NCBI RefSeq assembly: GCF_963921235.1
Contig: NC_086097.1
Span: 52,578,001-52,642,000, forward strand
Direction of reading: 5' to 3'
DNA from: Mobula hypostoma
Taxonomy: Eukaryota
DNA length: 64,000 nucleotides
The notes below the pieces were generated by a model. The model was not told the origin of the DNA and made no database searches. It was given only the letters and a program-made list of their open reading frames with translations. Shown piece after piece: positions 5,351 through 51,872 of this stretch (position 1 is its first letter; each line of letters opens with the position of its first letter). The position numbers were made by a program, and so were the translations under genes.

Positions 5351-5648
5351 AACTGAAGGAAGAGTGAGTAAGGGATTTGAAAGCTGGAGGGGGAGGGGGA
5401 GATGCAAAATGATAGGAGAAGACAGGAGGGGGAGGGATAGAGCCGAGAGCTGGACAGGTGATAGGCAAAAGGGGATACGAGAGGATCATGGGACAGGAGG
5501 TCCGGGAAGAAAGACGGGGGGGGGAGGGGGTGACCCAGAGGATGGGCAAGAGGTATATTCAGAGGGACAGAGGGAGAAAAAGGAGAGTGAGAGAAAGAAT
5601 GTGTGCATAAAAATGAGTCACAGCTGGGGTACGAGGGGGAGGTGGGGC

Positions 5649-7161: not shown

Positions 7162-7197
7162 AGTCCTGACGAAGGGTCTCGGCCTGAAACGTCGACT
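7162..7197 (+). ncRNA. Minimal type I hammerhead ribozyme
   Basis: AGTCCTGACGAAGGGTCTCGGCCTGAAACGTCGACT; predicted cleavage after GUC (C7193). Confidence 0.85.
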
Positions 7198-7260
7198 GCA
7201 CCTCTTCCTATAGATGCTGCTTGGCCTGCTGCGTTCACCAGCAACTTTGATGTATGTTGC

Positions 7261-7700
7261 TATACTTTCCTTTCTTCTGCCTCCTTCCCTTCTTAAAGAG
7301 TGGAGTGACATTTTCAGTTTTCCAGTTCTCCAGAACCATTCAATAATCTAGTAATTCTTGAAAGGTCAGATCTACCTGCATACTGAACTCCACCATGATT
7401 ATTGCAACTTTGCCCTTTTTAACATACTTTTTCTCTCTCCCATTTAATTTGTAGTCCACATCCTGGCTACTGTTCACAGGCCTGTATACAACTCCCATCA
7501 AGGTCTTCTTACCTTTGCAGTTCATTAACTCTATCCCCAAGGATTCTATATCCTCTGTTACCTCTTTCTAAGGATCTGAGTTCATTTTCTACCAACAGAG
7601 CCTTGCTACCCCTTTGTCTACCTGCCTGTCCTTTCAATGCAATGTGTATCCGTGGATTTTAAGCTTACAACTATGATTTTCTTTCAGCCACAACTCAGAG
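7261..7700 (-). mobile_element. Degenerate CR1 LINE fragment (endonuclease and start of RT, internally deleted)
   Basis: Minus-strand ELMNCKGKKTLMGVVYRP and WKTENVTPLFKKG. Confidence 0.75.
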
Positions 7701-12927: not shown

Positions 12928-13374
12928 ATGTGTGTATGATTTTTTAAAAATTTAATGAAGGAAATAATTATGTTAGCATTGAGAATATTTATGTTCATCA
13001 GGATCTAAGGATTCAATAAATGTACATTTCTGAAAGAATATTCTGATAAAGTGGGCAATCCATAGAGTCATACAGCATGGAAGCAGATCCTTCAGTAGAT
13101 CAAGTACCCATATACACAACCTCATTTTATTCTCCGATATTTCACAGATAAAATTCCATAATGCTGAATTTATGTATTCAGTTTCCTCTATCAGTTTTTT
13201 TTCTACAGCTACCAGATGAACATGGAAGTTTGTATTTACTTTTATTAAAACTCCTGGACATAAATCATTACTTATCAAGTATCAAAGTAAAAGCAGCTGT
13301 TTACTGCAACGTGGAACCGATACAATGCATACTATGTTCTGGGCTGTATCCAGACTCTGATTGAGAAATCATTA

Positions 13375-13568
13375 ACAACAGGAATTCTGCAGATGCTGGA
13401 AATTCAAGCAACACACATCAAAGTTGCTGGTGAACGCAGCAGGCCAAGCAGCATCTGTAGGAAGAGGTGCAGTCGACGTTCCCGACGAAGGGTCTCGGCC
13501 TGAAACGTCGACTGCACCTCTTCCTACAGATGCTGCTTGGCCTGCTGCGTTCACCAGCAACTTTGATG
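13375..13568. mobile_element. Miniature tail-out inverted PLE dimer (194 bp)
   Basis: Left arm 13375-13480 and right arm 13481-13568 are inverted PLE 3' ends; 13-bp TSD TGAGAAATCATTA at 13362-13374 and 13569-13581. Confidence 0.93.
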
Positions 13569-13748
13569 TGAGAAATCATTAGCTGCTTATTACATGATGT
13601 GGAATCTCTTCCACACAGAGAATATGGGGTTGAAGTCTGATTGTACCGAGGGACAGTAGCCATTCATTAACACCTGCTGCTACTCTTTTGCTGACAAATA
13701 TCATGTTTTACTTTGCTTATCTTTATGATAAGGTAAGTATAGATATCA

Positions 13749-15792
13749 TAGAAACATAGAAACATAGAAAATAGGTGCAGGAGTAGGCCATTCGGCCCTT
13801 CGAGCCTGCACCGCCATTTATTATGATCATGGCTGATCATCCAACTCAGAACCCAGCCTTCCCCCCATACCCCCTGACCCCTGTAGCCACAAGGGCCATA
13901 TCTAACTTCCTTTTAAACATAGCTAATGAACTGGCCTCAACAGTTTGCTGTGGCAGAGAATTCCACAGATTCACCACTCTCTGTGTGAAGAAGTTTTTCC
14001 TAACCTCGGTCCTAAAAGGCTTCCCCTCTATCCTCAAACTGTGACCCCTCGTTCTAGACCTCCCCAACATCGGGAACAATCTTCCCGCATCTAGCCTGTC
14101 CAATCCCTTTAGGATCTTATACGTTTCAATCAGATCCCCCCTCAATCTTCTAAATTCCAACGAGTACAAGCCCAGTTCATCCAGTCTTTCTTCATATGAA
14201 AGACCTGCCATCCCAGGAATCAATCTGGTGAACCTTCTTTGTACTCCCTCTATGGCAAAGATGTCTTTCCTCAGATTAGGGGACCAAAACTGCACACAAT
14301 ACTCCAGGTGTGGTCTCACCAAGGCCTTGTACAACTGCAGTAGTACCTCCCTGCTCCTGTACTCGAATCCTCTCGCTATAAATGCCAGCATACCGTTCGC
14401 CTTTTTCACCGCCTGCTGTACCTGCATGCCCACTTTCAATGACTGGTGTATAATGACACCCAGGTCTCGTTGCACCTCCCCTTTTCCTAATCGGCCACCA
14501 TTCAGATAATAATCTGTTTTCCTATTTTTGCCACCAAAGTGGATAACTTCACATTTATCCACATTAAATTGCATCTGCCATGAGTTTGCCCACTCACCCA
14601 ACCTATCCAAGTCACCCTGCATCCTCTTAGCATCCTCCTCACTGCTAACACTGCCACCCAGCTTTGTGTCATCCACAAACTTGGAGATACTGCATTTAAT
14701 TCCCTCATCCAAGTCATTAATATATATTGTAAACAACTGGGGTCCCAGCACTGAGCCTTGCGGTACCCCACTAGTCACCGCCTGCCATTCTGAAAAGGTC
14801 CCGTTTATTCCCACTCTTTGCTTCCTGTCTGCTAACCAATTCTCCACCCACACCAATACCTTACCCCCAATACCGTGTGCTTTAAGTTTGCACACTAATC
14901 TCCTGTGTGGGACCTTGTCAAAAGCCTTTTGAAAATCCAAATATACCACATCCACTGGTTCTCCCCTATCCACTCTACTAGTTACATCCTCAAAAAATTC
15001 TATGAGATTCGTCAGACATGATTTTCCTTTCACAAATCCATGCTGACTTTGTCTGATCATTTCACCGCTTTCCAAATGTGCTGTTATCACATCCTTGATA
15101 ACTGACTCCAGCAGTTTCCCCACCACCGACGTTAGGCTAACCGGCCTATAATTCCCTGGTTTCTCTCTCCCTCCTTTTTTAAAAAGTGGGGTTACATTAG
15201 CCACCCTCCAATCCTCAGGAACTAGTCCAGAATCTAACGAGTTTTGAAAAATTATCACTAATGCATCCACTATTTCTTGGGCCACTTCCTTAAGCACTCT
15301 GGGATGCAGACCATCTGGCCCTGGGGATTTATCTGCCTTCAATCCCTTCAATTTACCTAACACCACTTCCCTACTAACATGTATTTCGCTCAGTTCCTCC
15401 ATCTCACTGGACCCTCTGTCCCTTACTATTTCTGGAAGATTATTTATGTCCTCCTTAGTGAAGAGAGAACCAAAGTAATTATTCAATTGGTCTGCCATGT
15501 CCTTGCTCCCCATAATCAATTCACCTGTTTCTGTTTGCAGGGGACCTACATTTGTCTTTATCAGTCTTTTCCTTTTTACATATCTATAAAAGCTTTTACA
15601 GTCCATTTTTATGTTCTCTGCCAGTTTTCTCTCATAATCTTTTTTCCCCTTCCTAATTAAGCCCTTTGTCCTCCTCTGCTGAACTCTGAATTTCTCCCAG
15701 TCCTCAGGTGAGCCACTTTCTCTGGCTAATTTGTATGCTACTTCTTTGGAATTGATACTATCCCTAATTTCTCTTGTCAGCCACGGGTGCAC
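13749..15792 (-). mobile_element. Young 5'-truncated CR1 LINE
   Basis: (AGAAACAT)n tail complement; candidate TSD GATATCA at 13742-13748 and 15797-15803; uninterrupted RT frame. Confidence 0.95.
13846..15792 (-). pseudogene. CR1 ORF2 reverse transcriptase region, open ~650 codons, no endonuclease
   Basis: KSPGPDG, NYRPVSLTS, YLDFQKAFDKVPH, GVPQGSVLGP, FVDD (FADD in other copies). Confidence 0.9.
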
Positions 15793-16794
15793 AATTGATA
15801 TCACTATCAATTGTACATGAATTCCTTGTCAGAGCTCAGCAGGGATCTGAATTACTAATTAAGCAGAGTACAGAGTCAAGATGTGAGCCTAACTGTCCTT
15901 TATTTTAACCTGTATATAATGCAGGTGGTAGTAAAGATCTCTGAGAAGAAATTTGTGAAGTTGGTTCACCCAGGCTGCCTTGTAATGATAAATAGGGAAA
16001 CACACTAAACTGCCATGTGATAGTCAATATGATCACCATTTTACCTTTGACTCCCTTTCCCTTCCAGGAATAATTGCTTTTATCTTATATGTGCACTTGC
16101 CAGATGCACAAAGATTGGAAACTAGTTCAAAACCATCTGAGTGAGTTATCAGGTAATTAAATTTTGAATGTGGTCAAGTTGGGGGTTGGGTGGGACTTTT
16201 CGAATTGAAAAAGTCAACAATTGATATCCTCAGTGTTAGCAAATGATTTTTAATATGTTTCATTATGCATTCACACGTCATGACCATTGGTGCCAGGGTA
16301 TCTTTGGGCTTCTCTTTCTCTATGCTTCTGAAAGGAACTAACATTTAATTTTTATGTTACATTCAACTTTTCAAACCAGCAGAATGTGTGATCTGAAAAA
16401 AAAAATTCAGAGGTGTGCTTTACAGTCAGGTAGTTATTTTTAAAAGAGTAATAACTATTATCAAGGTGAAGATTAGCTGGTCTCTATTTAAATTTCAAAG
16501 TTCTTCAAGGCATTTATCATGTTCACTGTGTAACTAAACGCCTTTGTTTTCTAAAGCATTTATTTTCCTTGAAGGTATAATACCCAAATTGAATATAATA
16601 CTTCAGCCAAAGTAAAAAAAAATCGTAATTAACAGAACACGTTGGACTATTATGCTCCCATTTATAAGGCCTGGGATCTCACATGCATTAATGTCTGCTC
16701 GAGGAGCTGAGGGCAATTAACATAACAGCTTCAGAGATGTGTTCAGCAATGCTCCCAGATCTTTCTTCTTGCAGATGTATTAGATATTGTAACC

Positions 16795-20026: not shown

Positions 20027-20313
20027 TGTAGCGATGTGCTACACACAGAGCTAGAAATAATGACACACAGTCTGTAAGTTGCACTCGGGACTAGTTTAAT
20101 CAATCTTCACGGCGCTGGCTTTTACGCAGTTCCGTTCCTGCCCTCTCCGGGTGGAAATGACATCAGAGGTGCATTACAAAAGTCTCTTCCCGTGCGCAGG
20201 CTTTCTCCCCTTGCTGGTGAAGAAGGCCCAGCGCCATTTTGGGGCTGGCCTCTCTGCCGACACGTGCGCCATTTTGTGAGCTGGTTCGCCTGTGTAGAAA
20301 GTGGGTCACCACA
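20027..20313 (-). repeat. Gypsy 3' LTR
   Basis: 287-bp direct repeat of 24091-24378; preceded on the minus strand by a G-rich PPT-like tract (~20317-20330). Confidence 0.95.
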
Positions 20314-23300
20314 TAACACCCCCCAGAACCGGCGATACACCTCCCAATGTCCACAGTCTGGATTGGTCTCTGTTTGGGCGGTCTGCCTCTGCGCCGCGGT
20401 GCCTGAACCTCGACCGGCTGCACCAAGTCCACATGTGCCAGTTTGAGTCGGTCCGCTGTGAAAACCTCCTCTCTCCCCCCAGTGCCCAGAACGTACGTGG
20501 ACCCATTGTTCCCGATCACCTTGAACGGCCCCTCGTACAGCCGCTGTAGCGGTGCCCACTCTGCACCCCTTCACACAAATACAAACTTACATTTCTTCAG
20601 GTCTTTGGGTACGCAGGTCGGGCTCTGTCCATGCTGTGAAGTAGGTACGGGGGCCAGGTTGCCGAGCCTCTCACGTAGTCTGTCCAGGACTGCTGCGGGT
20701 TCTTCCTCTTGCCCCCTTGGGGCTAGTATGAACTCTCCTGGGACAACCAGGGGTGCGCCGTACACCAGCTCGGCCGACGAGGTGTGCAGGTCCTCTTTGG
20801 GCGCTGTGCGGATTCCAAGCAGGACCCAGGGAAGCTCGTCCACCCAGTTAGGCCCTTTCAGGCGGGCCATGAGAATTGACTTCAGGTGACGGTGGAAGCG
20901 TTCCACTAGTCCGTTCGACTGTGGGTGGTAGGCAGTTGTGTGGCGTAGCTGCGTTCCCAACAGGCTGGCCACAGCCGACCACAGGCTGGAGGTGAACTGG
21001 GCGCCTCTGTCAGAGGTAATGTGGGCCGATACCCCGAAGCGGGCTACGCAGGTTGCAATCAGTGCTCGGGCACAGGACTTGGCGGTGGTGTCGGTGAGTG
21101 GGACCGCCTCTGGCCATCTCGTGAACCAGTCTACCATAGTTAGGAGGTACCACGCTCCTCGCGACACTGGCAGGGGACCCACGATATCCACATGAATGTG
21201 GTCGAACCTCCAGCAGGGCTTTGGTGTGCCGCTGCACCTTGGCTGTTTGGCACTGCGTGCACGTTTTGGCCCATTTGCTGACCTGTTTGCGAAGTCTGTG
21301 CCACACGAACTTGCTGGAGACCATCTGGACGGTTGTCCTGATAGATGGGTGCGCCAAGCCGTGTATGGAGTTGAAAACTCGCCGCCGCCAGGCTGCCGGG
21401 ACGATGGGGCGAGGTTGGCCGGTAGCCATGTCACACAGGAGGGTCCTCTCACCTGGGCCTGCGAGGAAGTCTTGCAGCTACAAACCCGAGACTGCGGTCC
21501 TGTAGCTGGGCATCTCATCGTCTGCCTGCTGCATCTCCGCCAGTGCTGCATAGTCCACCCCCGGGACAGGGCCTGGACAGCTGGTCTGGAGAGTGCGTCC
21601 GCCACAACACTGTCCTTTCCCGAGACATGCTGGATGCCCGTCGTGTACTTGGAGATGTAGGACACATGTCGCAGCTGGTGGGCCAACCAGGGATCAGACA
21701 CCTTCGTGAACGTGAAGGTCAACAGTTTGTGGTCCGTGAATGCGGTGAATGGCCTGCCTTCTAAGAAATACCTGAAATGCCGGATTGCCAGATATAGTGC
21801 CAACAGCTCCCGGTTGAAGGCACTGTACTTGAGTTCGGGTGACCGTAGGTGCCTGCTGAAGAACGCCAGGAGTTGCCAGCGCCCCTTGATGAGTTGCTCC
21901 AGCACCCCACTGACTGCTGTGTTGGATGCGTCCAATGTGAGGGCGGTTGGAACGTCTGTTCTGGGGTGCACTAGCATCGCGGCATCTGCCAAGGCTTCCT
22001 TGGCTTTAACGAAAGCGGCCGTGGCCTCTTCGTCCCAGGTAATGTCCTTGCCTTTACCCGACATCAGAGTGAACAAAGGGCACATGATATGGGCTGCTGA
22101 GGGGAGGAAGTGGTGGTAGAAGTTCACCATACCAACAAACTCCTGCAGGCCTTTGACTGTGTTGGACTGGGCAAAGTGGCAGATCGCGTCTACCTTGGCG
22201 GGCAGAGGTGTTGCCCCGTCTTTGGTAATCCTGTGGCCCAGGAAGTCGATGGTGTCGATTCCAAACTGTCATTTGGCCGGGTTGATCGTGAGGCTGAAAT
22301 CACTCAGGCGGGAGTAGAGCTGACGGAGGTGGGACAGATGCTCCTGATGACTACTGCTGGCTATGAGGATGTCGTCCAAATAGATGAACGCAAAGTCCAG
22401 ATCGCGTCCCACCACATTCATTAGCCGCTGGAACATCTGTGCGGCATTCTCCAGGCCGAACGGCATTCGGAGGAATTCGAACAGGCCGAACGGGGTGATG
22501 AGTGCGGTTTTGGGGATGTCTTCAGGGTGTACCGGGATTTGATGGTATCCCCGGACGAGGTCTATTTTGGAAAAGACACTTGCCCCGTGCAGGTTTACTG
22601 CAAAGTCCTGTATCTGCGGCACGGAGTAGCAGTCTGGAGTTGTATCCTCGTTCAGTCTGCGGTAGTCGCTGCATGGTCTCCAGCCCCTGGCTGCTTTGGT
22701 CACCATGTGCAGGGGGGAGGCCCATGGGCTGTCCGACCGCCGTAAGATCCCCAATTCCTCCATCCTCTTGAACTCCTCCTTCGCCAGGCAGAGCTCGTCC
22801 GGGGGGAGCCTTTGTGCACGGGCGTGGAGGGGTGGTCCCTGGGTCGGAATGTGGTGCTGTACTCCGTGTCTGGGCATGGCTGCTGTGAACTGCGGTGCCA
22901 GAACCGATGGAAAGTCCGCCAGGATTCTGGTGAATTCTTTGTCAGACAGCGTGATGGAGTCCAGGTGTGGGGCCGGCAACTTGGCTTCACCCAGAGAGAA
23001 CATCTGGAAAGTCTTGGCATGGACCAGTCTTTTCCCTTGCAAGTCGACCAGCAGGCTGTGAGCTCACAAGAAGTCCGCCTCCAGGAGTGGATGGGCCACG
23101 GCGGCCAGTGTGAAGTCCCATGTGAACCGGCTGGCGCCGAACTGCAGCTGCACTGTGCGGGTGCCGTAGGTCTGTATCGTACTGCCATTTGCGGCCCTCA
23201 GGGTGGGTCCCAGCTCCCTGTTGTGGGTGTCGTACCCCATCAGGGGTAAGACACTGATTTCCGCTCCGGTGTTGACCAAGAAGCGGCGTCCCGACTGTTT

Positions 23301-24075
23301 GTCCCAGATGTACAAGAGGCTGTCCTGGTGGCCAGCTGCCGTAGCCATTAGCGGCGGCTGGCCCTGGCGTTTTCTGGGAACTTGCAGGGCGGGCGACAAC
23401 GGCGGGCTTCTGTGCCCCACCGCTGGTGGTAGGAACACCACTGTTCATTGGCCTCCTCACTCCTGCCTCTGGGTTGTGTGCGGTCCATTGCCGGGCCTGG
23501 TCTGGCCTGCTGTTAGGCGCGTGGCTTGGTAATCTGTCCAATGGACACCCTGCTCTCCCTCTTGGCTTTCCACAGCACGTCTGCCCAGGCCGCCACCTTC
23601 CGGGGGTCACTGAAATCTGCGTCGGCCAGCAGCTGATGTATGTCCTCGGGCAGTTGCTCTAGGAAAGCCTGTTCAAACATGAAGCAGGGCTTGTGTCCTT
23701 CAGCCAGAGCCAGCATCTCGTTCATTAATGCTGACGGCGGCCTGTCTCCCAAACTGTCCAGGTGCAGCAAGTGGGCACCTCACTCACGCCGTGAGAGGCT
23801 AAAGGTCCCTATGGGCAGCGCTTTGAATGCCGCATATTTGCCTTCGGTGGGGGTGACTGTATGAAATCCTCAACCTGGGCGGTTGTCTCCCGGTCAAGGG
23901 AGCTCACCACATAATAGTAACGCATGGAATCAGAAGATATCTGCCAAATCTGGAACTGGGCATCTGCTTGGTCAAACCACACGCGTGGTTGCTGCGTCCA
24001 GAAAGTTGGCAGTTTTAGTGAAACTGCGTGAACAGATGAAGAGTCGATCATCTTTGGTCCAAATCCCGTTTGGAC

Positions 24076-24090: not shown

Positions 24091-24378
24091 TGTAGCGATG
24101 TGCTACACACAGAGCTAGAAATAACGACACGCAGTCTGTAAGTTGCACTCGAGACTAGTTTATTCAAACTTCGCGGCACTGGCTTTTACGTAGTTCCCTT
24201 CCCGCCCTCTCCGGGCGGAAATGACGTCAGAGGTGCATTACAAAAGTCTCTTCCCGCGCGCGGGCTTTCTTCCCCTTGCTGGTGAAGAAGGCCCAGTGCC
24301 ATTTTGGGGCTGGTCTCTCTGCCGACACGTGCGCCATTTTGTGAGCCGGTTAGCCTGTGTAGAAAGTGGGTCACCACA
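24091..24378 (-). repeat. Gypsy 5' LTR
   Basis: 288-bp direct repeat; about 18 substitutions and 1 indel versus the other LTR by eye, many at CpG. Confidence 0.95.
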
Positions 24379-25380: not shown

Positions 25381-26110
25381 AGATAGGGTATATACTGTAG
25401 TCAAACTCCTTCCCCCATGGTAGGGGTTATAACAAGCTGAAGATTCAAGATGAGAGAAAGCAGATATGAATGGGATCTGAGGGGGAAGTTTTTGCAATTC
25501 AGAAATTAGTTGATATGTGGAATGAAACCAAAGGATGTGAAGTATGCAGATGCAATAACTCCACTTAGGGGACACCTAGACAGACACTTAAAAAGGCATA
25601 GAAAGTCCTGATCTAATGCAGGCAAATGGGATGAGCATAAGTGTTGGCAAGGACATGGTGGGCCATTTCTGTAATGTACAATTTGAAACAGGTCATGGAG
25701 TTTTAAAATTAATGATTTGAGAGGATGGAAGCAATAGATGGATAACATTGAACAACACTGAGAAAGTTGGACCTTGGGACAATGAAGGAAAACTATATAT
25801 AAAATATTACAAGAAATATTTAGCAAACCATCTGTTAAGTAAGGGAGCTCAACTCAAGATCAACTCATCAAAGCTGGATTTGAAATAACAGTGGCGAGAT
25901 CTATAGATAGAAAAGCAGTTTCTCAGAGCATTGACAAGAGCCACAAATGGTAGCTTTAATTTACTAATATTGTAATGTTAGAAAAAAAACATAGAAGATC
26001 CTGATTAAACGCAAACAACAGGAATTCTGCAGATGCTGGAAATTCAAGCAACATACATCAAAGTTGCTGGTGAACGCAGCAGGCCAAGCAGCATCTATAG
26101 GAAGAGGCGC

Positions 26111-26146
26111 AGTCGACGTTACAGGCCGAGACCCTTCGTCAGGACT
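26111..26146 (-). ncRNA. Hammerhead ribozyme with a core mutation (GAAA to GUAA), probably inactive
   Basis: Same motif as the other copies, but plus-strand A at 26121 replaces T. Confidence 0.7.
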
Positions 26147-26443
26147 AACTGAAGGAAGAGTGAGTAAGGGATTTGAAAGCTGGAGGGGGAGGGGGAGATG
26201 CAAAATGATAGGAGAAGACAGGAGGGGGAGGGATAGAGCCGAGAGCTGGACAGGTGATAGGCAAAAGGGGATACGAGAGGATCATGGGACAGGAGGTCCG
26301 GGAAGAAAGACGGGGGGGTGTGGGGTGACCCAGAGGATGGGCAAGAGGTATATTCAGAGGGACAGAGGGAGAAAAAGGAGAGTGAGAGAAAGAATGTGTG
26401 CATAAAAATGAGTAACAGCTGGGGTACGAGGGGGAGGTGGGGC

Positions 26444-27346
26444 CTAGCGGAAGTTAGAGAAGTCAATATTCATGCCATCAGGTTGGAGGCTACCCAGACG
26501 GAATATAAGGTGTTGTTCCTCCAACCTGAGTGTGGCTTCATCTTTACAGTAGAGGAGGCCGTGGATAGACATGTCAGAATGGGAATGGGATGTGGAATTA
26601 AAATGTGTGGCCACTGGGAGATCCTGCTTTCTCTGGCGGACAGAGCGTAGATGTTCAGCAAAGCGGTCTCCCAGTCTGCGTTGGGTCTCACCAATATATA
26701 AAAGGCCGCATCGGGAGCACCGGACGCAGTATATCACCCCAGTCGACTCACAGGTGAAGTGATGCCTCACCTGGAAGGACTGTTTGGGGCCCTGAATGGT
26801 GGTAAGGGAGGAAGTGTAAGGGCATGTGTAGCACTTGTTCCGCTTACACGGATAAGTGCCAGGAGGGAGATCAGTGGGGAGGGATGGGGGGGACGAATGG
26901 ACAAGGGAGTTGTGTAGGGAGCGATCCCTGCGGAATGCAGAGAGAGGGGGGGAGGGAAAGATGTGCTTAGTGGTGGGATCCCGTTGGAGGTGGCGGAAGT
27001 TACGGAGAATAATATGCTGGACCCGGAGGCTGGTGGGGTGGTAGGTGAGGACCAGGGGAACCCTATTCCTAGTGGGGTGGTGGGAGGATGGAGTGAGAGC
27101 AGATGTACGTGAAATGGAGGAGATGCGTTTAAGAGCAGAGTTGATAGTGGAGGAAGGGAAGCCCCTTTCTTTAAAAAATGAAGACATCTCCCTCGTCCTA
27201 GAATGAAAAGCCTCATCCTGAGAGCAGATGCGGCGGAGACGGAGGAATTGCGAGAAGGGGATGGTGTTTTTGCAAGAGACAGGGTGAGAAGAGGAATAGT
27301 CCAGATAGCTGTGAGAGTCAGTAGGCTTATAGTAGACATCAGTGGA
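26444..27346 (-). pseudogene. 5'-truncated PLE ORF (RT thumb and GIY-YIG)
   Basis: Open frame from STDVYYKPTDSH to MNIDFSNFR. Confidence 0.9.
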
Positions 27347-29077
27347 CAACTCGCGGATACCTCCTCTTATTTACCCCTCGATCGTGACCCCACCAAGGAG
27401 CACCAGGCCATTGTCTCCCACACTATCAACGACTTTATCCGCTCAGGGGATCTCCCATCCACTGCTACCAACCTTATAGTTCCCACACCCCGCACTTCCC
27501 GTTTCTACCTCCTACCCAAGATCCACAAACCTGCCTGTCCTGGCCGACCTATTGTCTCAGCTTGCTCCTGCCCCACCGAACTCGTTTCTGCATACCTCGA
27601 CACTGTTTTATCACCCCTTGTTCAATCCCTTCCGACCTATGTTCGTGACACTTCTCACGCTCTTAAACTTTTCGATGATTTTAAGTTCCCTGGCCCCCAC
27701 CGCTTTATTTTCACCATGGATGTCCAGTCCTTATATACTTCCATCCCCCATCAGGAAGGTCTCAAAGCTCTACGCTTCTTTTTGGATTCCAGACCTAATC
27801 AGTTCCCCTCTACCACCACTCTGCTCCGTCTAGCGGAATTAGTCCTTACTCTTAATAATTTCTCCTTTTGCTCCTCCCATTTCCTCCAAACTAAAGGTGT
27901 AGCTATGGGCACCCGTATGGGTCCTAGCTATGCCTGCCTTTTTGTTGGGTTTGTGGAACAATCTATGTTCCGTGCCTATTCTGGTATCTGTCCCCCACTT
28001 TTCCTTCGCTATATCGACGACTGCATTGGCGCTGCTTCCTGCACGCATGCAGAACTCGTTGACTTTATTAACTTTGCCTCCAACTTTCACCCTGCCCTCA
28101 AATTTACCTGGTCTATTTCCGACACCTCCCTCCCCTTTCTAGATCTTTCTGTCTCTGTCTCTGGAGACAGCTTATCCACTGATGTCTACTATAAGCCTAC
28201 TGACTCTCACAGCTATCTGGACTATTCTTCTTCTCACCCTGTCTCTTGCAAAAACGCCATCCCCTTCTCGCAATTCCTCCGTCTCCACCGCATCTGCTCT
28301 CAGGATGAGGCTTTTCATTCTAGGACGAGGGAGATGTCTTCATTTTTTAAAGAAAGGGGCTTCCCTTCCTCCACTATCAACTCTGCTCTTAAACGCATCT
28401 CCTCCATTTCACGTACATCTGCTCTCACTCCATCCTCCCACCACCCCACTAGGAATAGGGTTCCCCTGGTCCTCACCTACCACCCCACCAGCCTCCGGGT
28501 CCAACATATTATTCTCCGTAACTTCCGCCACCTCCAACGGGATCCCACCACTAAGCACATCTTTCCCTCCCCCCCTCTCTCTGCATTCCGCAGGGATCGC
28601 TCCCTACACAACTCCCTTGTCCATTCGTCCCCCCCATCCCTCCCCACTGATCTCCCTCCTGGCACTTATCCGTGTAAGCGGAACAAGTGCTACACATGCC
28701 CTTACACTTCCTCCCTTACCACCATTCAGGGCCCCAAACAGTCCTTCCAGGTGAGGCAACACTTCACCTGTGAGTCGGCTGGGGTGATATACTGCGTCCG
28801 GTGCTCCCGATGTGGCCTTTTATATATTGGTGAGACCCGACGCAGACTGGGAGACCGCTTTGCTGAACATCTACGCTCTGTCCGCCAGAGAAAGCAGGAT
28901 CTCCCAGTGGCCACACATTTTAATTCCACATCCCATTCCCATTCTGACATGTCTATCCACGGCCTCCTCTACTGTAAAGATGAAGCCACACTCAGGTTGG
29001 AGGAACAACACCTTATATTCCGTCTGGGTAGCCTCCAACCTGATGGCATGAACATTGACTTCTCTAACTTCCGCTAG
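27203..29077 (+). CDS. PLE reverse transcriptase plus GIY-YIG endonuclease ORF (first 48 codons come from the antisense of the left arm)
   Basis: No stops. Motifs FYLLPKIHK, GRPIVS, TMDVQSLYTSI, QTKGVAMGTRMGPSYA, RYIDD, LPFLD, CKRNKCYTC and VIYCVRCSRCGLLYIGET; native N-terminus missing. Confidence 0.85.
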   Translation: MKSLILRADAAETEELREGDGVFARDRVRRGIVQIAVRVSRLIVDISGQLADTSSYLPLDRDPTKEHQAIVSHTINDFIRSGDLPSTATNLIVPTPRTSRFYLLPKIHKPACPGRPIVSACSCPTELVSAYLDTVLSPLVQSLPTYVRDTSHALKLFDDFKFPGPHRFIFTMDVQSLYTSIPHQEGLKALRFFLDSRPNQFPSTTTLLRLAELVLTLNNFSFCSSHFLQTKGVAMGTRMGPSYACLFVGFVEQSMFRAYSGICPPLFLRYIDDCIGAASCTHAELVDFINFASNFHPALKFTWSISDTSLPFLDLSVSVSGDSLSTDVYYKPTDSHSYLDYSSSHPVSCKNAIPFSQFLRLHRICSQDEAFHSRTREMSSFFKERGFPSSTINSALKRISSISRTSALTPSSHHPTRNRVPLVLTYHPTSLRVQHIILRNFRHLQRDPTTKHIFPSPPLSAFRRDRSLHNSLVHSSPPSLPTDLPPGTYPCKRNKCYTCPYTSSLTTIQGPKQSFQVRQHFTCESAGVIYCVRCSRCGLLYIGETRRRLGDRFAEHLRSVRQRKQDLPVATHFNSTSHSHSDMSIHGLLYCKDEATLRLEEQHLIFRLGSLQPDGMNIDFSNFR

Positions 29078-29370
29078 GCCCCACCTCCCCCTCGTACCCC
29101 AGCTGTGACTCATTTTTATGCACACATTCTTTCTCTCACTCTCCTTTTTCTCCCTCTGTCCCTCTGAATATACCTCTTGCCCATCCTTTGGGTCACCCCC
29201 CCCCCGTCTTTCTTCCCGGACCTCCTGTCCCATGATCCTCTCGTATCCCCTTTTGCCTATCACCTGTCCAGCTCTCGGCTCTATCCCTCCCCCTCCTGTC
29301 TTCTCCTATCATTTTGCATCTCCCCCTCCCCCTCCAGCTTTCAAATCCCTTACTCACTCTTCCTTCAGTT

Positions 29371-29406
29371 AGTCCTGACGAAGGGTCTCGGCCTGAAACG
29401 TCGACT
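29371..29406 (+). ncRNA. Minimal type I hammerhead ribozyme
   Basis: AGTCCTGACGAAGGGTCTCGGCCTGAAACGTCGACT; predicted cleavage after C29402. Confidence 0.85.
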
Positions 29407-29709
29407 GCGCCTCTTCCTATAGATGCTGCTTGGCCTGCTGCGTTCACCAGCAACTTTGATGTATGTTGCTTGAAGATCCTGATTAACATTGGTCTATACT
29501 AGAAATATGGACTAGGAAAACTGAGCACCCATAGCTGCTTCCCCATTGTTGGGGTAGAAAGTAAAGAAAGAATTTGTTGCATGGAGAAGCCTCTTTTAAC
29601 CCTACTAAAGGTATGGGGACGTACAGCAGGCTGAAGTAAATTTTATGCCAGTTTTAAAAAGGAATGCTCAGAAGTGTGCAAACTACATTTCACCTCAGCT
29701 TTGGTTGCA

Positions 29710-34796: not shown

Positions 34797-37700
34797 GATT
34801 TGCAGGGGGATGGGAACCAGAGTGCCAGAGCTGACAGTGTGGCTGGGGTGAAAATAAATGATGTTAGAAGTTCTAGCAAATCCGCTAATAGAAAGGTTGT
34901 GAGTGGTGGTAAAAATCTTCTGAGGTGTATATATTTCAATGCTAGGAGTATTGCGGGGAAGGCAGGTGAGTTGAGGGCGTGGATTGACACGTGGAATTAT
35001 GACGTTATAGCAACTAGTGAAACTTGGCTACAGGAGGGGCAGGACTGGCAGCTTAATAATCCAGGGTTCCGATGTTTCAGATGTGATCGAGGCAGAGGAA
35101 TGAAAGGTGGGGGAGTAGCATTGCTTGTCAGAGAAAATGTTACAGCAGTGCTCAGGCAGGACAGATTAGAGGGCTTGTCTACTGAGTCCTTACGGGTGGA
35201 GCTGAGAAACAGGAAAGGTATGGCCACATTAGTGGGATTGTATTACAGACCACCCAATAGTCAACGAGAATTGGAAGAGCAAATCTGCAGAGAGATAGCA
35301 GGCAACTGCAGGAAACATAAAGTTGTGGTGGTAGGGGATTTTAATTTTCCATATATTGATTGGGACTCCCATACTGTTAGGGGTCTAGATGGTTTAGAGT
35401 TTGTAAAATGTGTTCAGGAAAGTTTTCTAAATCAATATATAGAGACCAACTAGAGGGGATGCAATATTGGATTTCCTGTTAGGAAATGAGTTAGGACAAG
35501 AGACGGAAGTCTGTGTAGGGGAGCACTTTGGTTCCAGTGATCATAACACCATTAGTTTCAACTTGATCATGGAAAAGGATAGATCTGGTCCTCGGGTTGA
35601 GGTACTGAACTGGAAGAAGGCCAAATTTGAAGAAATGGGAAAGGATCTAAAAAGCATGAATTGGGACAGGTTGTTCTCTGGCAAAGATGAGATCGGTAGG
35701 TGGGAAGCCTTCAAAGGAGAAATTTTGAGAGTGCAGAGTTTGTATGTTCCTGTCAGGATTAAAAGCAAAGTGAATAGGAATAAGGAACCTTGGTTCTCAA
35801 GGGATATTGCAACTCTGATAAAGAAGAAGAGGGAGTTGTATGACATGTATAGGAAACAGGGAGTAAATAAGGTGCTTGAGGAGTATAAGAAGTGCAAGAA
35901 AATACTTAAGAAAGAAATCAGGAGGGCTAAAAGAAGACATGAGGTTACCTTGGCAGTCAATGTGAAGGATAATCCAAAGAGCTTTTACAGGTGTATTAAG
36001 AGCAAAAGGATTGTAAGGGATAAAATTGGTCCTCTTGAAGATCAGAGTGGTCGGCTATGTGCGGAACCAAAGGAAATGGGGGAGATCTTAAATAGGTTTT
36101 TTGCGTCTGTATTTACTAAGGAAACTGGCATGAAGTCTATGGAATTAAGGGAAACAAGTAGTGAAATCATGGAAACTGTACAGATTGAAAAGGAGGAGGT
36201 GCTTGCTGTCTTGAGGAAAATTAAAGTGGATAAATCCCCGGGACCTGACAGGGTGTTCCCTCGGACCTTGAAGGAGACTAGTGTTGAAATTGCAGGGGCC
36301 CTGGAAGAAATATTTAAAATGTCGCTGTCTACAGGTGAGGTGCCGGAGGATTGGAGAGTGGCTCATGTTGTTCCGTTGTTTAAGAAAGGATCAAAAAGTA
36401 ATCTGGGAAATTATAGGCCGGTAAGTTTAACGTCGGTAGTAGGTAAGTTATTGGAGGGAGTACTAAGAGACAGAATCTACAAGCATTTGGATAGACAGGG
36501 ACTTATTAGGGACAGTCAACATGGCTTTGTGCGTGGTAGGTCATGTTTGACCAATCTATTGGAGTTTTTTGAGGAGGTTACCAGCAAAGTGGATGAAGGG
36601 AAGGCAGTGGATATTGTTTACATGGACTTCAGTAAGGCCTTTGACAAGGTCCCGCATGGGAGGTTAGTTAGGAAAATTCAGTCGCTAGGTATACATGGAG
36701 AGGTGGTAAATTGGATTAGACATTGGCTCAATGGAAGAAGCCAAAGAGTGGTAGTAGAGAATTGCTTCTCTGAGTGGAGGCCTGTGACTAGTGGTGTGCC
36801 ACAGAGATCAGTGCTGGGTCCATTGTTATTTGTCATCTATATCAATGATCTGGATGATAATGTGGTAAATTGGATCAGCAAATTTGCTGATGATACAAAG
36901 ATTGGAGGTGTAGTAGACAGTGAGGAAGGTTTTCAAAGCCTGCAGAGGGACTTGAACCAGCTGGAAAAATGGGCTGAAAAATGGCAGATGGAGTTTAATA
37001 CAGACAAGTGTGAGGTATTGCACATTGGAAGGACAAACCAAGATAGAACATACAGGATTAATGGTAAAGCACTGAGGAGTGCAGTAGGACAGAGGGATCT
37101 GGGAATACAGATACAAAATTCCATAAAAGTGGCGTCACAGGTAGATAGGGTCGTAAAGAGAGCTTTTGGTACATTGGCCTTTATTAATCAAAGTATTGAG
37201 TATAAGAGCTGGAATGTTATGATGAGGTTGTATAAGGCATTGGTGAGGCCGAATCTGGAGTATTGTGTTCAGTTTTGGTCACCAAATTACAGGAAGGATA
37301 TAAATAAGGTTGAAAGAGTGCAGAGAAGGTTTACAAGGATGTTGCCGGGACTTCAAAAACTCAGTTACAGAGAAAGGTTGAATAGGTGAGGACTTTATTC
37401 CCTGGAGCATAGAAGAATGAGGGGAGATTTGATAGAGGTATATAAAATTATGATGGGTATAGACAGAGTGAATGCAAGCAGGCTTTTTCCACTGAGGCAA
37501 GGGGAGAAAAAAACCAGAGGACATGGGTTAAGGGTGAGGGGGAAAAAGTTTAAAGGGAACATGGGGGGGCTTCTTCACACAGAGAGTGGTGGGAGTATGG
37601 AATGAGCTGCCAGACGAGGTGGCAAATGCGGGTTCTTTTTTAACATTTAAGAATAAATTGGACAGATACATGGATGGGAGGTGTATGGAGGGATATGGTC

Positions 37701-37984: not shown

Positions 37985-40213
37985 TTCTTTTTCAATCTTT
38001 TTATTAATTTCAAAATACAGAAACAAAACATAGCAATAATACAAATAATAGGAGATACATTGTTACACTTAAAAAAGTAATTGCAAAACCAAGTAGTGTA
38101 AATTAACAAAGCTCCCAAACATGTAGAACTAACCACGGATAATACAAAGCAAAAAAAAACTGGAAAAAAAACATGAAAAAGAAAAAAAAACAAAACAGGA
38201 AAAAACCCCATCCCCAAAGAAAAACAAAATTAATCAAGTAAACTAAAAGACTTGGGCAAAACTAACAACTTAAAAGTGGAAAAGAAGAAAACCTTAGTGT
38301 CGACGACTCCATTCCCCTCCAACAACAGTACAGAGAGATAAAACAAGTTTGGAGATGATCAAATTACATCAAATGAAAATGCTGAATGAATGGCCTCCAA
38401 GTTTTTTCAAACTTAATGGAAGGGTCATAAACTGCACTTCTAATTTTCTCCAAATTCAAACACACCATAGTTTGTGAAAACCAATGAAATACAGTAGGAG
38501 GATTAATCTCTTTCCAATTCAACAAAATGGACCTTCTAGCTATTAAAGTAAGAAATGCAATCATCCTTCGTGATGAAGAGGTTAAATTATTTAAGTCTAT
38601 CATTGGTAGTCCAAAGATAGCAGTAATTGGATGAGGTTGTAAGTCTATATTTAGGACCGTTGAAATAATATCAAAAATATCTTTCCAATATTTCTCCAAC
38701 AAGGGACGTGACCAAAACATGTGAGTTAAAGAAGCTATCTCGAAATGACATCTGTCACATATTGGATTAATATAAGAGTAATAACAAGATAGTTTATCTT
38801 TGGACATATAAGCCCTGTGCACTACTTTAAACTGTATCAACCTATGCTTAGCACATACAGAGGATGAATTCACCAACTGAAGAATTTTTTCCCATTTTTC
38901 AGTCGGTATATTAATCTCAAGTTCTCTTTCCCAGTCAGCTTTAATTTTATTAGAAGCATCAGGACATAGATTCATAATTATATTATATATAATTGCTACT
39001 ACACTTTTCTGAGAGATTTAAATCTAAGATTTTTTCCAAAGTGTCCATTGGATATGGGTGTGGAAAATTAGGGGAGACAGTAATTAAAAAGTTTCTAATC
39101 TGTAGATACCTAAAAAAGTGAGATCTGGGTAAGTTATATTTATTAGAGAGTTGATCAAAAGACATAAAACAGTTATCCAAGAATAAATCGCGAAAAAATA
39201 TTATACCTTTGGTTTTCCAATCAAAGTGAGCTTGATCCATCGTGGAAGGTTGAAAAAGAAAATTTGATATAATGGGACTTGCTAGAATAAATTGATTAAA
39301 CCCAAAAATTCTTCGGAATTGAAACCATATACGTAAAGTATGCTTAACTATTGGGTTGTTCATTTGTTTATATGATTTAAAAGAAGTAAAAGGAAGTAAA
39401 GTTCCTAAAACCGAACCCAAGGAAAACCCTTGTAATGAATTAGATTCAAGATTTACCCAATGAGGGTTTAAAGATGCGTCCAAATCTTGTAACCAAAATT
39501 TTAAATATCGAATATTAATTGCCCAATAATAGAATCTAAAATTCGGGAGGGCGAGCCCCCCCCCCTCCTTTTTAGATTTCTGTAGATACCTTTTACCTAA
39601 CCTAGGATTTTTATTCTGCCAAATATATGAGGAAATTTTTGAATCTACGTTATCAAAAAAAGATTTTGGGATAAAAATTGGAACCGATTGGAATATATAC
39701 AAAAATTTGGGCAAAATGATCATCTTAATAGCATTAATCCGACCATTCAAAGACAAAGAGATTGGGGACCATTTGGTAAATAAAAGTTTAATCTGATCAA
39801 TTAAAGGTAAAAAATTAGCTTTAAATAAATCTTTGTATTTTTTCGTAATTGTTATCCCTAAATATATAAATGAATCAGTAACCAATTTAAATGGTAAACG
39901 TCCATAAATAGGTACATGCTTATTTAAAGGGAATAATTCACTCTTACTAAGATTCAATTTGTAACCAGAGAAGTTACTAAATTGAGCTAACAGATCTAGG
40001 ATAGCAGGAATTGACTTCTCCGGGTTAGAGATGTATAACGACAAATCATCTGCATATAATGATAATTTATGTATTTCGTTTCCACGGGTAATACCAACAA
40101 TATTTGGCGAGTCACGAATAGCAATTGCTGAAGGTTCAAGAGCAATATTAAATAGTAAAGGACTAAGAGGGCAACCTTGCCTAGTACCACGAAAAAGACG
40201 AAAAAAAGATCTA
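37985..40213 (-). mobile_element. 5'-truncated L1-clade LINE (3' part of ORF2 and 3' UTR)
   Basis: RGTRQGCPLSPLLF, LYADD, GRINAIKM, CDRC..HMFW; T-rich tail complement at the left; TSD TTTATTTCT at 37976-37984 and 40252-40260. Confidence 0.9.
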
Positions 40214-41639
40214 TATTTCTGAGTGGCGCCACACCCTCCCTAGTTTATTTCTTTATTTCTGAGTGGCGCCACACCCTCCCTAGTTACCCTCTTGCTCTTG
40301 GTGTAAGTACAGAATGCCTTAGAGCTCTCTCTTTAATCCTACTTACCAAGGGCTTTTCACGGCCCCTCCTGGCTTTCCTAATTCTCTTTTTAAGTTCTTT
40401 TCTGGCTTGTTTATAATCCTCGGGCGCTCAAATTCAGCAGGTTGCTTCCTGGACAGGAGGCGTTTAATCGCAGGGGAGAAATTGGATAGTGCGGACTTGT
40501 TTTCCGCAGAGCAAAGGAAGCTCAGGAGTGGCCTGATAGAAGCATGTAAGATTGTGCATTATAAGCCATATGGCCAAAATCAAATTCAGGAGAGCATAGA
40601 CTTATGGGTTTTAAACGAGAGCTTAGAGGCTACATATTTTTACATGAAGGGTGGCTGATAACCAGATTGCATTGCCAGAGGAGAGAATGGAAACAGACAA
40701 ATTCATGATGTTTAAGAGATATTTAGATTAAAACAAGCAAGGCATAGAAGGATACAATTCTAATGTAGCAAATGGGTTTATTGTAGATGTCAGCATGGTC
40801 CTGGCGGGTAGAAAGGCCCGTGACTCGCCCTGTTTTTTAGCGTCTCCAATATTTTGTCTGTTTTGGTGGAGGCGTGGAAGTGCAACTTCACTTTTGCAAC
40901 AGGTCTGGGTTCGTTTTCATTCTGTGCATACCAGGGGAGTGTTTACGCAGTTGCTGATGAAATTGGTCCTGCTGGGTGGGTCACACTTTTTGTCATATTT
41001 TGCATTGCCAGGTTTTATGCTGATGTTGAGTGCACAACCTCGCTGGACAGCTAAACATGAATACATTTTAAAAGTTCACACAGTCAGTTCTGATCCCTTG
41101 GTATCTTGAAGGTTAACTTTGAAATATGCATGGATTTGCTTCTGATCGCCGTTTTTTTATCAATCATGAACATACAGCATTCTGAGAGTCAGCCTTAAAT
41201 TCATTTTGTTCCCCTTCCTAACGAACAACAAATAGTAACGGAGAAGTTTCACAAGTGGTTAACAAAGCATATTTCATGTTATGGTTAGCTTATAACTATT
41301 TTGAAATGTAGTAATAATTTTGTAACCAAATGATTTGAAATTGTTTACATTCGGACCGTTATTATAAATATTTTCCTACGTACCAAAGTTCAGTTATTTG
41401 GAAGTTATGGACTTTTATGCTTAAGGTAGATCCCGATAGCCTCCTTGGTGCGCGATACGTAATCTTGAGAAATCAAAAAACTGCACAGGTTGAACATCCG
41501 AAACAAAATCAAAATAAAAATGCTGGAAAGGCTCAAGGGGTCAAGACGCATCCGTGAAAAGTGCGGGGAGTATTTCAGGAAGGCTTGAAGTCTTCATTCT
41601 CTTTCTCTGTCCATAGATGCTACTGATCGGCTGAGTGTT

Positions 41640-48400: not shown

Positions 48401-50115
48401 TGAACTGAATAATTATTTTGCACCAGTCTTCACTGTGGAAGAAACTAGCAGAATGGTGGAAGTTCCAGTTGTCAGGGAGTATGAAGAGTGTGAAGTTACC
48501 ATAACTAGAGAGAAGGTTCTTAGGAAATTGAGATGTCTCGAGGTAAATAAGTCATTTGGACCACATGGTGTACACCCCAGGGTTCTGAAAGAGGTGGCTG
48601 AAGAGATCGTGGAGGCATTAGAAATGATCTTTCACAAGATTCTGCAATGATTCCGGAAAACTGGAAAATTACAAATGTCACTCCACTCTTCAAGAAGGGA
48701 GAGAAGCAAAAGAAAGGAAATCATAGGCCAGCTGGTCTGACCTCAATTGTTGGTAAGATGTTGAAGTCGATTATTAAGGATGAGGTCTCAGGGTACTTGG
48801 AGACACATGATAAGATAGGCTGTAGTCAGCATGGTTTCCTCAAGGGAAAATCTTGCCTGATCAATCTGTTGGAATTTTTTGAAGAAATAGCAAGCAGGAT
48901 TGACAAAGGAGAATCGGTTGATAATGTATGCTTGGATGTTTAGAAGGCCTTTGACAAGATGCCACACATGAGGCTGCTTAGCAAGCTACGAACCCATGGT
49001 ATTAGTGGAAAGATTCTAACAAGGACAAAGTAGTGGTTGATAGGCAGGAGGCAAAGAGTGGAAATAAAGGGAACCTTTTCAGGTTGGCTCCTGGTGACTA
49101 GTGGTGTTCCACAGGGGTCTGTGTTGGGACAAATTCTTTTTGCATTACATATCAGTGATTTGGATGATGGAATTGATGGTTTTGCTGCAAAGTTTGCAGA
49201 TGCAATGAAGATAGGTGCAGGGGCATGTAGTTTCGAGGAAATAGAGAGGTTAGTAAGGCCTTAGACAGATTAGGAGAATGAGCAAAGAAGTGGAAGGTGG
49301 AATACAGTGTTGGGAAATGTATGGTTATGCACTTTGGTAGAAGAAATGAAAGGGTTGACTATTTTCTAAATGGAGTGAAAATACAAAAATAACGGAGGCA
49401 CAAAGGGACTTGGGAGTCCTTGTGCAGGATTCTCTAAAGGTTAATTTGCAGGTTGAGTCTGTGGTGAGGAAAGTAAATGCAATATTAGTATTCCTTTCAA
49501 GAGGACTAGAATATAAAAGCAAGGATATAATGTGAGTCTTTATAAAGCACTGGCGAGGCCTCACTTGGAGCATTGTGAGCAGTTTTGGCCCCCTTATTTT
49601 AGAAAGAATGTGCTGAAACTGGAGGTGGTTCAAAGGATATTCTCGAAAATGTTTCCAGGATTGATTGGCTTGTCATATGAAGATCAATTGATGGCTGTGG
49701 GCTTGTAGTCATTAGAATTCAGACGAATGAGGGGTGACCTCACTGAAACTAATTGAATGGTGAATGGCATTGATAGAGTGGATTTGGAGAGGATGTTTCC
49801 TACGGTGGGAGAGTCTAAGACCAGAGGACTCGGCCTCAGAATAGAGGGCATCCTGTTAGAATGGAGATGAGGAGGAATTTCTTCAGCCAGAGAGTGGTGA
49901 ATCTGTGGAATTTGTTGCCACAGGCAGCTGTGGAGGCCAAGTCTTTATGTATATTTAAGGCAAAGGATAATAGATTCTTGATTGGTCGGGACATGAAGGG
50001 ATATGAGGAGAAGGCAGGAGATTGGGGCTGAGAGGAAAATTGGATCAGCCATGATGAAATGGTGGTGCAGACTTGATGGGCCAAATGGCCTAATTCTGCT
50101 CCTATGTTCTTTAGG
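45500..50115 (+). mobile_element. Degenerate near full-length CR1 (ORF1 SGNH esterase plus ORF2), interrupted by an L1
   Basis: VVIGDSLVRG..TNDMGR..DGLHLN esterase motifs; YDVVGITESW, NVTPLFKKG, GVPQGSVLG; 3' end GGGCCAAATGGCCTAATTCTGCTCCT. Confidence 0.85.
46224..47132 (-). mobile_element. 5'-truncated L1, same family as 37985-40213
   Basis: MSKDKL..CDRCHSEIASLTHMFWSC..EKTWRPF; 11-bp TSD GTATATATTTC at 46213-46223 and 47133-47143. Confidence 0.9.
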
Positions 50116-50424
50116 TCTTATCTTGCTCCTGTATATCTTCTCGTCACCATCAAAATTCTGCCAACAATAGTTGCATCCTCAACAAATTTATAGATTGCAT
50201 TTGAGCTGTGCCTGACCACACAGTCATGGGTGTAGAGAGGGCTGAGCACTGAGCTAAGCACACATCGCTGAGCTGTGCCAGTGTTGATTGTTGGCGAGGT
50301 GGAGGTGTTATTTATGATCCACACAGATTGTGGTCTTCCGATTAGAAAGGCAAGGATCCAGTTGCAGATGGAGGTACAGAACCTCAGGTTCTGGAGCTTT
50401 ACAATCAGAACTGTAGGAGTAATT

Positions 50425-50473
50425 TACACACAGACACGCACACACACTCATACGCACACACTCACATGTGCGT

Positions 50474-50513
<40 letters not shown>

Positions 50514-50560
50514 ACATGCGCACACACTCACACAAACACACACACACATACACACACTCA
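50425..50560. repeat. (CA)n microsatellite within an old Rex1-like fragment (~50115-50680, minus strand)
   Basis: Imperfect CA run; flank translates as TINTGTAQRCVLSSVLSPLYTHDCV. Confidence 0.9.
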
Positions 50561-50924
50561 CCTTCCCTCTAACACTGAGTTGTAGGCAATAAATAGCATC
50601 ATGTCATAGGTATTTGTATTGCCTGAGTAATCCAAGACCAAGTGAAGAGCCAATAAGATCGCATCCACCATAGACTTATTGTGGTGATAACCACAATGTT
50701 AATCATGCGGTAACAATACAATGCAATGCATTTTTTATAAAACTATACATTACAATAAGCAATATAATATGGAAAGCCAGCAAAAAATAGCGAGGTAGCG
50801 TTCATGGCTTGGTTCATTGTCCGTTCAGAAATGTGGAAGTCTGATGGTGGAGGGGAAGAAGCTGTCCCTAAAACACTAAATATATGTCATCAGGCTCCTG
50901 TACCTCCCCGATGATAGCAATGAG

Positions 50925-51872
50925 AAGAGTGCAAGTCTGACATCGATAGTTCGAAAGTTATTGGAGTCGATCCTCGAAGTGCATGACAAGATAGGCCCAA
51001 GCCAGCATGGTTTCATGAAGGGAAGATCCTGCCTCACCAACTTATTGGAATTTTTTGAGGTAATCTCAAATAAGATTGATAAGAGAGAGGCTGTGGATGT
51101 TGTGTATTTGGATTTTCAAAAGGCCTTCGATAAGGTGCCGCATAAGAGGCGGCTTAATAAGATGAGAGCCTATGGAATTACAGGAAAGATATTGAAATGG
51201 GTGGAGCATTGGCTGATAGGCAGAAAACAAAGGGTGGGAATAAAGGGATCCTATTCTGATTGGTTGCCGGTTACTAGTGGTGTTCCGCAGGGGTTGGTGT
51301 TGGGGCCGCTTCTTTTTACAATGTATATCGATGATTTAGATTATGGATTAAATAGTTTTGTGGCTACGTTTGCGGATGACACCAAGATAGGTGGAGGAGC
51401 AGGAAGTGTCGAAGAAATGGAAAGGTTGCAGAGAGACTTGGTCAGTTTAGGAGAGTGGGCAAAGAAATGGCAGATGAGATACAACTTTGACAAATGTACG
51501 GTTGTACATTTCAGAAGAAGAAATAATCGGGCAGATTATTATTTAGATGGGGAGAAAATTCAAAAATCGGAAGAGCAAAGGGACTTGGGGGTCCTCGTGC
51601 AGGATACCCTAAAGGTTAACCACCAAGTTGGATCGGTGGTAAGGAAAGCGAATGCTGTGTTAGCATTCATTTCAAGAGGAATAGTGTATGGGAGTAAGGA
51701 GGTGTTGATGAGGCTCTATGGGGCATTGGTGAGACCTCATTTGGAATACTGTGTGCAGTTTTGGCGAAATTGGAACTAGATGGGAGAATAGTTTAGCTCA
51801 TGGTGGAGTGGCAGAGCAGACTTGATGGGCCGAATGGCCTACTTCTGCTCCTTTGTCTTGTGATCTTGTGAT
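50925..51872 (+). mobile_element. CR1 RT fragment with an internal deletion near 51765
   Basis: SQHGFMKGRSCLTNL, YLDFQKAFDKVPH, FADD, LEYCVQFW, then a direct jump to the 3' UTR and (TCTTGTGA)n tail. Confidence 0.85.

Follow-up and report, generated by a model that had tools for sequence, protein, structure and literature searches.

The question raised by this locus is what a hammerhead ribozyme motif is doing near the 3' ends of truncated Penelope-like element (PLE) copies in the genome of Mobula hypostoma, and whether it contributes to the insertion of the element or to the inverted pairs in which most of these copies are found. The PLE family described here is a convenient test case for the in vivo role of PLE hammerheads (PMC8557442), as it is young, very abundant, and includes natural core mutants. 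Within the window, by which is meant the whole 64,000-nucleotide stretch of DNA that was analyzed, an intact minimal type I hammerhead lies at 29371-29406 on the plus strand, in the right arm of an inverted pair referred to here as dimer C. Helix I is formed by AGUC and GACU (29371-74/29403-06), with a possible additional U-G pair, and is followed by the core CUGACGA (29375-81), a bulged A (29382), and a 4-bp helix II closed by a CUCG loop (GGGU/CUCG/GCCU, 29383-86/29391-94). The GAA of G12 to A14 (29395-97), an ACGU palindrome (29398-29401), and C17 (29402) complete the motif, all on the plus strand, with the predicted cut between 29402 and 29403. A helix II had also been recognized in an earlier reading made from the sequence alone, but in a 3-bp AGG/CCU register; the register of 4 bp after a bulged A is preferred, both because it is more stable (-7.0 versus -5.6 kcal/mol) and because a common variant, U11.1>C, preserves it while breaking the A-U closing pair of the 3-bp alternative. 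Judged by its sequence, the motif is a PLE minimal type I hammerhead in which the ACGU palindrome stands in place of helix III. The sequence-only reading had identified it in the same terms, correctly, and hammerheads of this kind in PLEs have already been published (PMC4209133).

Self-comparison of the window places 36-nt hammerhead stretches at five sites, three of them identical and intact. In addition to the copy in dimer C, intact copies are found at 5315-5350 on the minus strand and 7162-7197 on the plus strand, in the left and right arms of dimer A, respectively. The two core-mutated copies are at 26111-26146 on the minus strand, in the left arm of dimer C, where A13 is replaced by U (GUAA), and at 57009-57044 on the minus strand, in arm D, which carries A15.1G as well as C rather than U at position 11.1. 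The core C3U4G5A6N7G8A9...G12A13A14A15.1...U16.1H17 is exact in three of the five long arms, and all five sites and their states agree with what had been listed from the sequence alone. A generic descriptor of minimal hammerheads finds three sites in the window, exactly the three intact ones, and the same descriptor applied to dinucleotide-preserving shuffles of the window gives any match in only 1 of 60 (mean 0.03). As the three intact sites are copies of one repeat, they represent a single independent occurrence. A comparison with Rfam, proposed earlier as a check, was negative: at thresholds of E <= 1 for the whole window and E <= 10 for 29340-29440, no hammerhead model matched; the motif is without a helix III.

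Contigs from two organisms provide a view of the family beyond the window. The family majority has the core exactly, and, among the 40 rows listed of 86, differences within the motif, apart from those at A13 and 11.1, amount to CpG-type decay of 8-14% per base, which hits both middle bases of ACGU. The A13U change at 26111-26146 is private to the window copy, with A in 99% of the depth in contigs. U11.1>C is the sole common non-CpG variant in the family; arm D carries it, as does 20% and 32% of the depth in the contigs of the two organisms, and it turns the G10.1-U11.1 wobble of the young subfamily into the G10.1-C11.1 pair that is typical of PLE minimal hammerheads (PMC4209133). Covariation across copies had been put forward as a further indication of a functional fold, and the outcome is mixed: helix II is paired in all five distinct aligned rows, by way of two one-sided changes, but these five rows hold no two-sided covariation within the family, helix I included. 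For the monomer RNA, the predicted fold is an inactive hairpin in which the core is paired to the cut-site strand, and its stability is no better than that of shuffles (z 0.10). A second palindrome, GUCGAC (29399-29404), overlaps ACGU and spans the cut site, with a calculated duplex stability of -7.5 versus -1.7 kcal/mol; modeled in this way, pairing through GUCGAC would favor an inactive dimer.

The family hammerhead pattern had no matches in viral contigs and a single match in metagenome contigs (L001:5-45, minus strand), which is an unrelated hammerhead whose helix I is GCGG/CCGC, whose helix II is capped by UUCG, and whose helix III is an 8-nt palindrome. The 2.5 kb of L001 contain nothing that matches a PLE protein, which gives no link between this locus and PLEs, and since most of helix II was already specified by the search pattern, independent information comes from helix I and the palindrome only. 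When L001 is included in the pair count, covariation is no higher than in shuffles (344/500), and its helix I is out of register, with 4 extra bases, which makes the helix I rows of that count uninformative.

The hammerhead lies approximately 300 nt after the stop codon of a 575-aa open frame (27350-29077, plus strand) with matches to reverse transcriptase (RT; RVT_1, E 2.4e-5) and, at its C terminus, to GIY-YIG (E 5.3e-4), both under the Pfam curated cut-offs. The frame also carries CCHH and, between the two domains, a CxxxxCxxC linker, CKRNKCYTC. There are 2147 homologues of this protein, the best of which is 96% identical and from Mobula hypostoma, followed by those from Hypanus and sharks, and of the 100 listed homologues with the YIGET motif, 97 carry a CX2-5CxxC linker. 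A zinc-finger-like linker of this form between RT and endonuclease (EN) is reported to mark the Neptune and Nematis clades (PMC8557442), and the element, an EN+ PLE, would by its linker be of Neptune/Nematis type. The family is young, with about 1% divergence between long arms, and it is abundant: 114,437 and 87,812 contig pieces from the two organisms aligned to the 450-nt element end. Runs tentatively classed as RNA, but possibly DNA, contain fractions of 0.25-0.79 of the words and are given no weight as a sign of expression. The open frame of the right arm of dimer C also continues 56 codons upstream into left-arm antisense sequence, giving a 631-aa stop-to-stop frame (27182-29077), and fragments like it are annotated as host "uncharacterized" proteins or as kinase or chitinase isoforms in ray genomes.

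Self-comparison of the window resolves seven PLE arms in four insertions, and wherever arms are paired, they are head-to-head with their 3' ends outward. The 5' part of the element is absent from the window; the arms are 5'-truncated, and there is no full-length copy. Dimer C consists of a 5'-truncated left arm (26009-27349, minus strand), which has a tail of about 35 nt and ends 106-108 nt past the cut, and a right arm (27350-29474, plus strand), also 5'-truncated, with the RT and GIY-YIG frame and with its short end at 69-72 nt beyond the cut; a 15-bp target-site duplication (25994-26008 and 29472-29486) surrounds the pair. Dimer A (left arm 5250-6633, minus strand; right arm 6634-7261, plus strand) has short ends on both sides, 69 and 68 nt past the cut, respectively, with neither a tail nor a clear target-site duplication. 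Dimer B, which the sequence-only reading did not report, is far smaller (107 + 90 nt), and its junction falls inside the hammerhead. The left arm of dimer B (13374-13480, minus strand) starts at core A14, 6 nt before the cut, and is tailed, ending 101 nt past the cut, while the right arm (13480-13569, plus strand) starts at the U of the helix I 5' strand, carries a U4C core change, and ends about 60 nt past the cut; a 13-bp target-site duplication is present at 13362-13374 and 13569-13581. Over 66 nt, no difference separates the two arms, and both carry minority alleles that are absent from dimers A and C. Two other accounts of dimer B were considered and rejected: an Rfam match to mir-3926 (13436-13548) is the pair of inverted arms itself, which form a near-perfect hairpin, and splicing as the source of the junction is contradicted by the join, which retains a GT that a donor would remove.

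The remaining insertion, arm D (56945-58217, minus strand), has a short end 68 nt past the cut, is older, with 12-16% divergence from A and C, and has no partner arm in the window. It is interrupted at 58218 by a LINE-like repeat. Numerous decayed LINE-type RT fragments are found on both strands of the window (13846-15828, 34797-37614, 38364-40239, 48558-55876, and 58218-60948), as are a 97%-identical inverted pair at 53032-53366 and 54175-54509 and what is left of an LTR-retrotransposon pol, matching RNase H and integrase (20571-23658, minus strand), which is adjoined by a 288-nt direct repeat (20027-20313 and 24091-24378) that may represent its LTRs. Considering all PLE arms together, the ends fall at two distances past the cut, about 60-72 nt and about 101-108 nt. 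It had been noted earlier that every long arm has the motif near its 3' end and keeps sequence downstream of the cut site, and both statements are correct, although the range is 68-108 nt rather than the 65-105 nt given.

All seven arms, including the short left arm of dimer B, are continuous across the cut site, indicating that their templates were uncleaved there, as the sequence-only reading had concluded for the long arms and as has already been published for another PLE (PMC11167929). The absence of cut copies says little about how often cleavage occurs, because cleavage would limit the resulting copy to a short 3' piece at best, and long copies are expected to be uncut by selection, whatever the cleavage rate. 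In the contigs, tail ends cluster at 26007, 26012, and 26013 with A-rich flanks (219, 222, and 244 contigs and 159, 206, and 196 contigs for the two organisms), and among the 12 rows listed of 916 for the contigs of both, there was no loose end at the cut site. Two raw-read runs yielded no sequence of the element-end stretch. In the anole element PAc, unprocessed RNA is described as the main insertion substrate in vitro, with reverse transcription starting at two internal sites past the hammerhead and thereby defining the tail; hammerhead mutants leave insertion unchanged, implying that unprocessed RNA is the main template; cleavage requires the protein and is abolished by core mutants; and no RNA reads end at the cut site (PMC11167929). 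For PLE minimal hammerheads more generally, no activity has been reported for monomers and low activity for dimers (PMC4209133), and the inactive hairpin predicted here for the monomer accords with low or protein-assisted activity (PMC4209133 and PMC11167929).

Given these data, we consider it likely that the motif is the minimal hammerhead of a PLE terminal repeat, that it probably cleaves weakly, either as a dimer or with the help of the protein, and that it probably has no required role in insertion. By analogy with the anole element, the protein would bind uncleaved read-through or tandem RNA and nick both strands of an AT-rich target, and reverse transcription primed at two internal sites past the hammerhead would then give rise to the short and the tailed ends. 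An inverted dimer could be produced if two such events, on either side of one break, stopped early and were joined by repair, with the protein, probably as a dimer, rather than the ACGU palindrome, holding both templates. For PAc, cleavage and extension of both target strands by the protein are reported, along with a predicted dimeric state (PMC11167929), and, by this analogy, it is more likely that the inverted dimers are made by the protein of the element than by the hammerhead pairing two RNAs. The truncated open frame in the window lacks the part of the protein from which the predicted PAc dimer is built. The mechanism is, however, borrowed from a Poseidon-clade element for one that, by its linker, would be of Neptune/Nematis type. 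It also leaves unexplained the junction of dimer B within the motif and the repeated occurrence of copy starts at the 5' boundary of helix I. Also counting against this account are the negative Rfam comparison, the lack of two-sided covariation within the family, and dimer A, with neither a tail nor a clear duplication. For head-to-head junctions, self-priming on an antisense template has been described as a different route (PMC3846280).

An alternative that we regard as unlikely is that the motif is a vestige or passenger in this PLE family, having the form of a hammerhead but not cleaving in vivo. The inactive predicted fold of the monomer fits such a role, as does the G-U found in the young subfamily where G10.1-C11.1 is usual (C in the 20% and 32% of depth given above), and it has been suggested that hammerheads may simply parasitize PLEs (PMC8557442). 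That every arm is uncut would also be consistent with a passenger, but uncut copies are expected by selection at any level of activity, and against a motif free of function stands a core that is exact in the family majority and in which, beyond A13 and 11.1, the differences in the 40 rows listed of 86 are the 8-14% attributable to CpG-type decay. The anole hammerhead, moreover, cleaves when its protein is present and loses this ability upon mutation of the core (PMC11167929).

A second alternative, also improbable in our estimation, concerns expression of the element rather than insertion: a transcription start or an intron end at the helix I 5' edge would place the hammerhead at the beginning of the message, where slow cleavage could trim or decap the mRNA and tune expression. 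This edge, 29371-29373 in the right arm of dimer C, is equivalent to 26144-26146 in the left arm and to 13480, where the right arm of dimer B starts. In one run (X5), 41 contigs break away from the element at 26144 and continue into diverse flanks that are long (median 183 nt, agreement 0.4), and of the 12 rows listed of 916, no other "behind" row has loose parts of such length. With 12 of 916 rows listed, however, there is no baseline for such a pile-up, the row is listed for X5 only, and one amplified short subfamily would produce the same pattern. Each of the two runs also has 2 contigs with an opposite-strand joint at 26145, and a joint at 26146 bears one extra C, which chance alone would give one time in four. 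A pyrimidine tract ending in TTAG lies just before helix I (29347-29372, plus strand), and its sequence resembles a 3' splice acceptor as well as an initiator-like element. In Drosophila virilis, an intron is reported to end at the helix I 5' end (PMC4209133), 46+75 nt after the start site (PMC2377424), whereas the anole element shows no RNA reads ending at the cut site (PMC11167929). The message of the element may begin with, or be spliced onto, the hammerhead.

The weakest alternative is the one originally advanced from the sequence, that ACGU-mediated pairing of two RNAs causes the inverted dimers. In its full form, the hammerhead would be a symmetric RNA dimerization module, with a strand-swapped helix I and a 4-bp helix III made of ACGU, bringing a pair of templates together at a single break. 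The palindrome does recur across PLE minimal hammerheads (PMC4209133), the sole outside locus found, L001, has a palindrome of 8 nt, and a nested double-hammerhead structure can be drawn. However, the requirement for cleavage as a dimer accounts for the palindrome without any such role, and the calculated energies are unfavorable: the ACGU duplex contributes -1.7 kcal/mol (nearest-neighbor estimate, tertiary contacts omitted), and the active double hammerhead reaches -11.5 kcal/mol compared to -22.0 kcal/mol for two inactive monomers and -30.3 kcal/mol for the best inactive dimer (tertiary contacts again omitted). The identity of the dimer B arms over 66 nt, with shared alleles absent from A and C, fits one template source, but same-source templates fit a protein dimer or a single tandem RNA equally well. 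Furthermore, a PLE protein alone processes both target strands (PMC11167929), and Naiad and Chlamys PLEs are described as forming tandem or inverted insertions without a canonical hammerhead, a point softened by the retention of core motifs in some Naiads (PMC8557442). The original proposal is therefore not borne out by the inverted insertions of Naiad and Chlamys, the -1.7 kcal/mol of ACGU, or the handling of both strands by the protein, and we regard template pairing through the hammerhead as very unlikely. A broader version, in which two RNAs of the element exchange helix I strands and pair through ACGU or the stronger GUCGAC in the manner of a retroviral dimer-initiation site, both templates thereby arrive at a single double-strand cut, copying proceeds outward from two internal starts, and cleavage is left as a slow, subordinate switch that may sit at the extreme 5' end of the message, seems to us highly doubtful as well. 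In the titles and abstract openings searched, with most subscription journals outside the coverage, there was nothing on hammerhead-mediated template pairing or on the motif in rays. If pairing were true, two-ended integration of a retrotransposon would be linked to the fold of a ribozyme, but the evidence leans against it.

Returning to the favored interpretation, a weakly active terminal-repeat hammerhead that is dispensable for insertion, the motif and its surroundings correspond closely to known systems. Minimal hammerheads have been described in the pLTRs of metazoan PLEs, including fish Xena, Poseidon, and Neptune, by Cervera and De la Pena in 2014 (PMC4209133); cartilaginous fish are not named in the portion of its main text covered here. 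The motif shares with these the type I layout, a helix I of 4-5 bp, the CUGANGA and GAAA core, an unpaired base before helix II, the pair formed by G10.1, a palindrome at 15.2-16.2 with no helix III, a position at the element end, and a very high copy number of truncated copies. It differs in that the young subfamily has G10.1-U11.1, and its 4-bp helix II is shorter than the 7-8 bp of the Schistosoma motifs (PMC4209133). The non-LTR retrozymes described in a 2026 bioRxiv preprint, which are non-coding head-to-tail tandem units with a hammerhead in each, were rejected as a counterpart, as the arms in the window are head-to-head and contain open frame sequence. With PAc, a Poseidon element of Anolis carolinensis (Frangieh et al. 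2024, PMC11167929), the family shares the uncleaved template, two end classes that define the tail, and AT-rich targets. Reverse transcription of PAc starts 111-118 nt into the open frame, which, with the cut at +26, corresponds to 85-92 nt past the cut, compared to ends at 60-72 and 101-108 nt in the window, and the window protein differs from that of PAc in having the Neptune/Nematis CX2-5CxxC linker.

The arrangement of the insertions, in turn, resembles the units reported for EN+ PLEs such as Pen2a_Av (Arkhipova et al. 2013, PMC3846280; Craig et al. 2021, PMC8557442). A head-to-head inverted, 5'-truncated copy, a tail of 30-40 bp at one end only, and a duplication around the whole unit are common to both. 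Dimers B and C combine 5' truncation, an inverted copy, a one-sided tail, and a target-site duplication, while dimer A has only the first two of these. The duplications in the window are 13 and 15 bp, compared to 8-10 bp in the rotifer cases, and the units here consist of just two truncated arms with no full-length copy, unlike those of the Pen2a_Av type (PMC3846280 and PMC8557442). Set against these systems, the hammerhead motif at this locus is real, was rightly recognized, and is ordinary, and the family that carries it is one more PLE family with the published motif and insertion layout.
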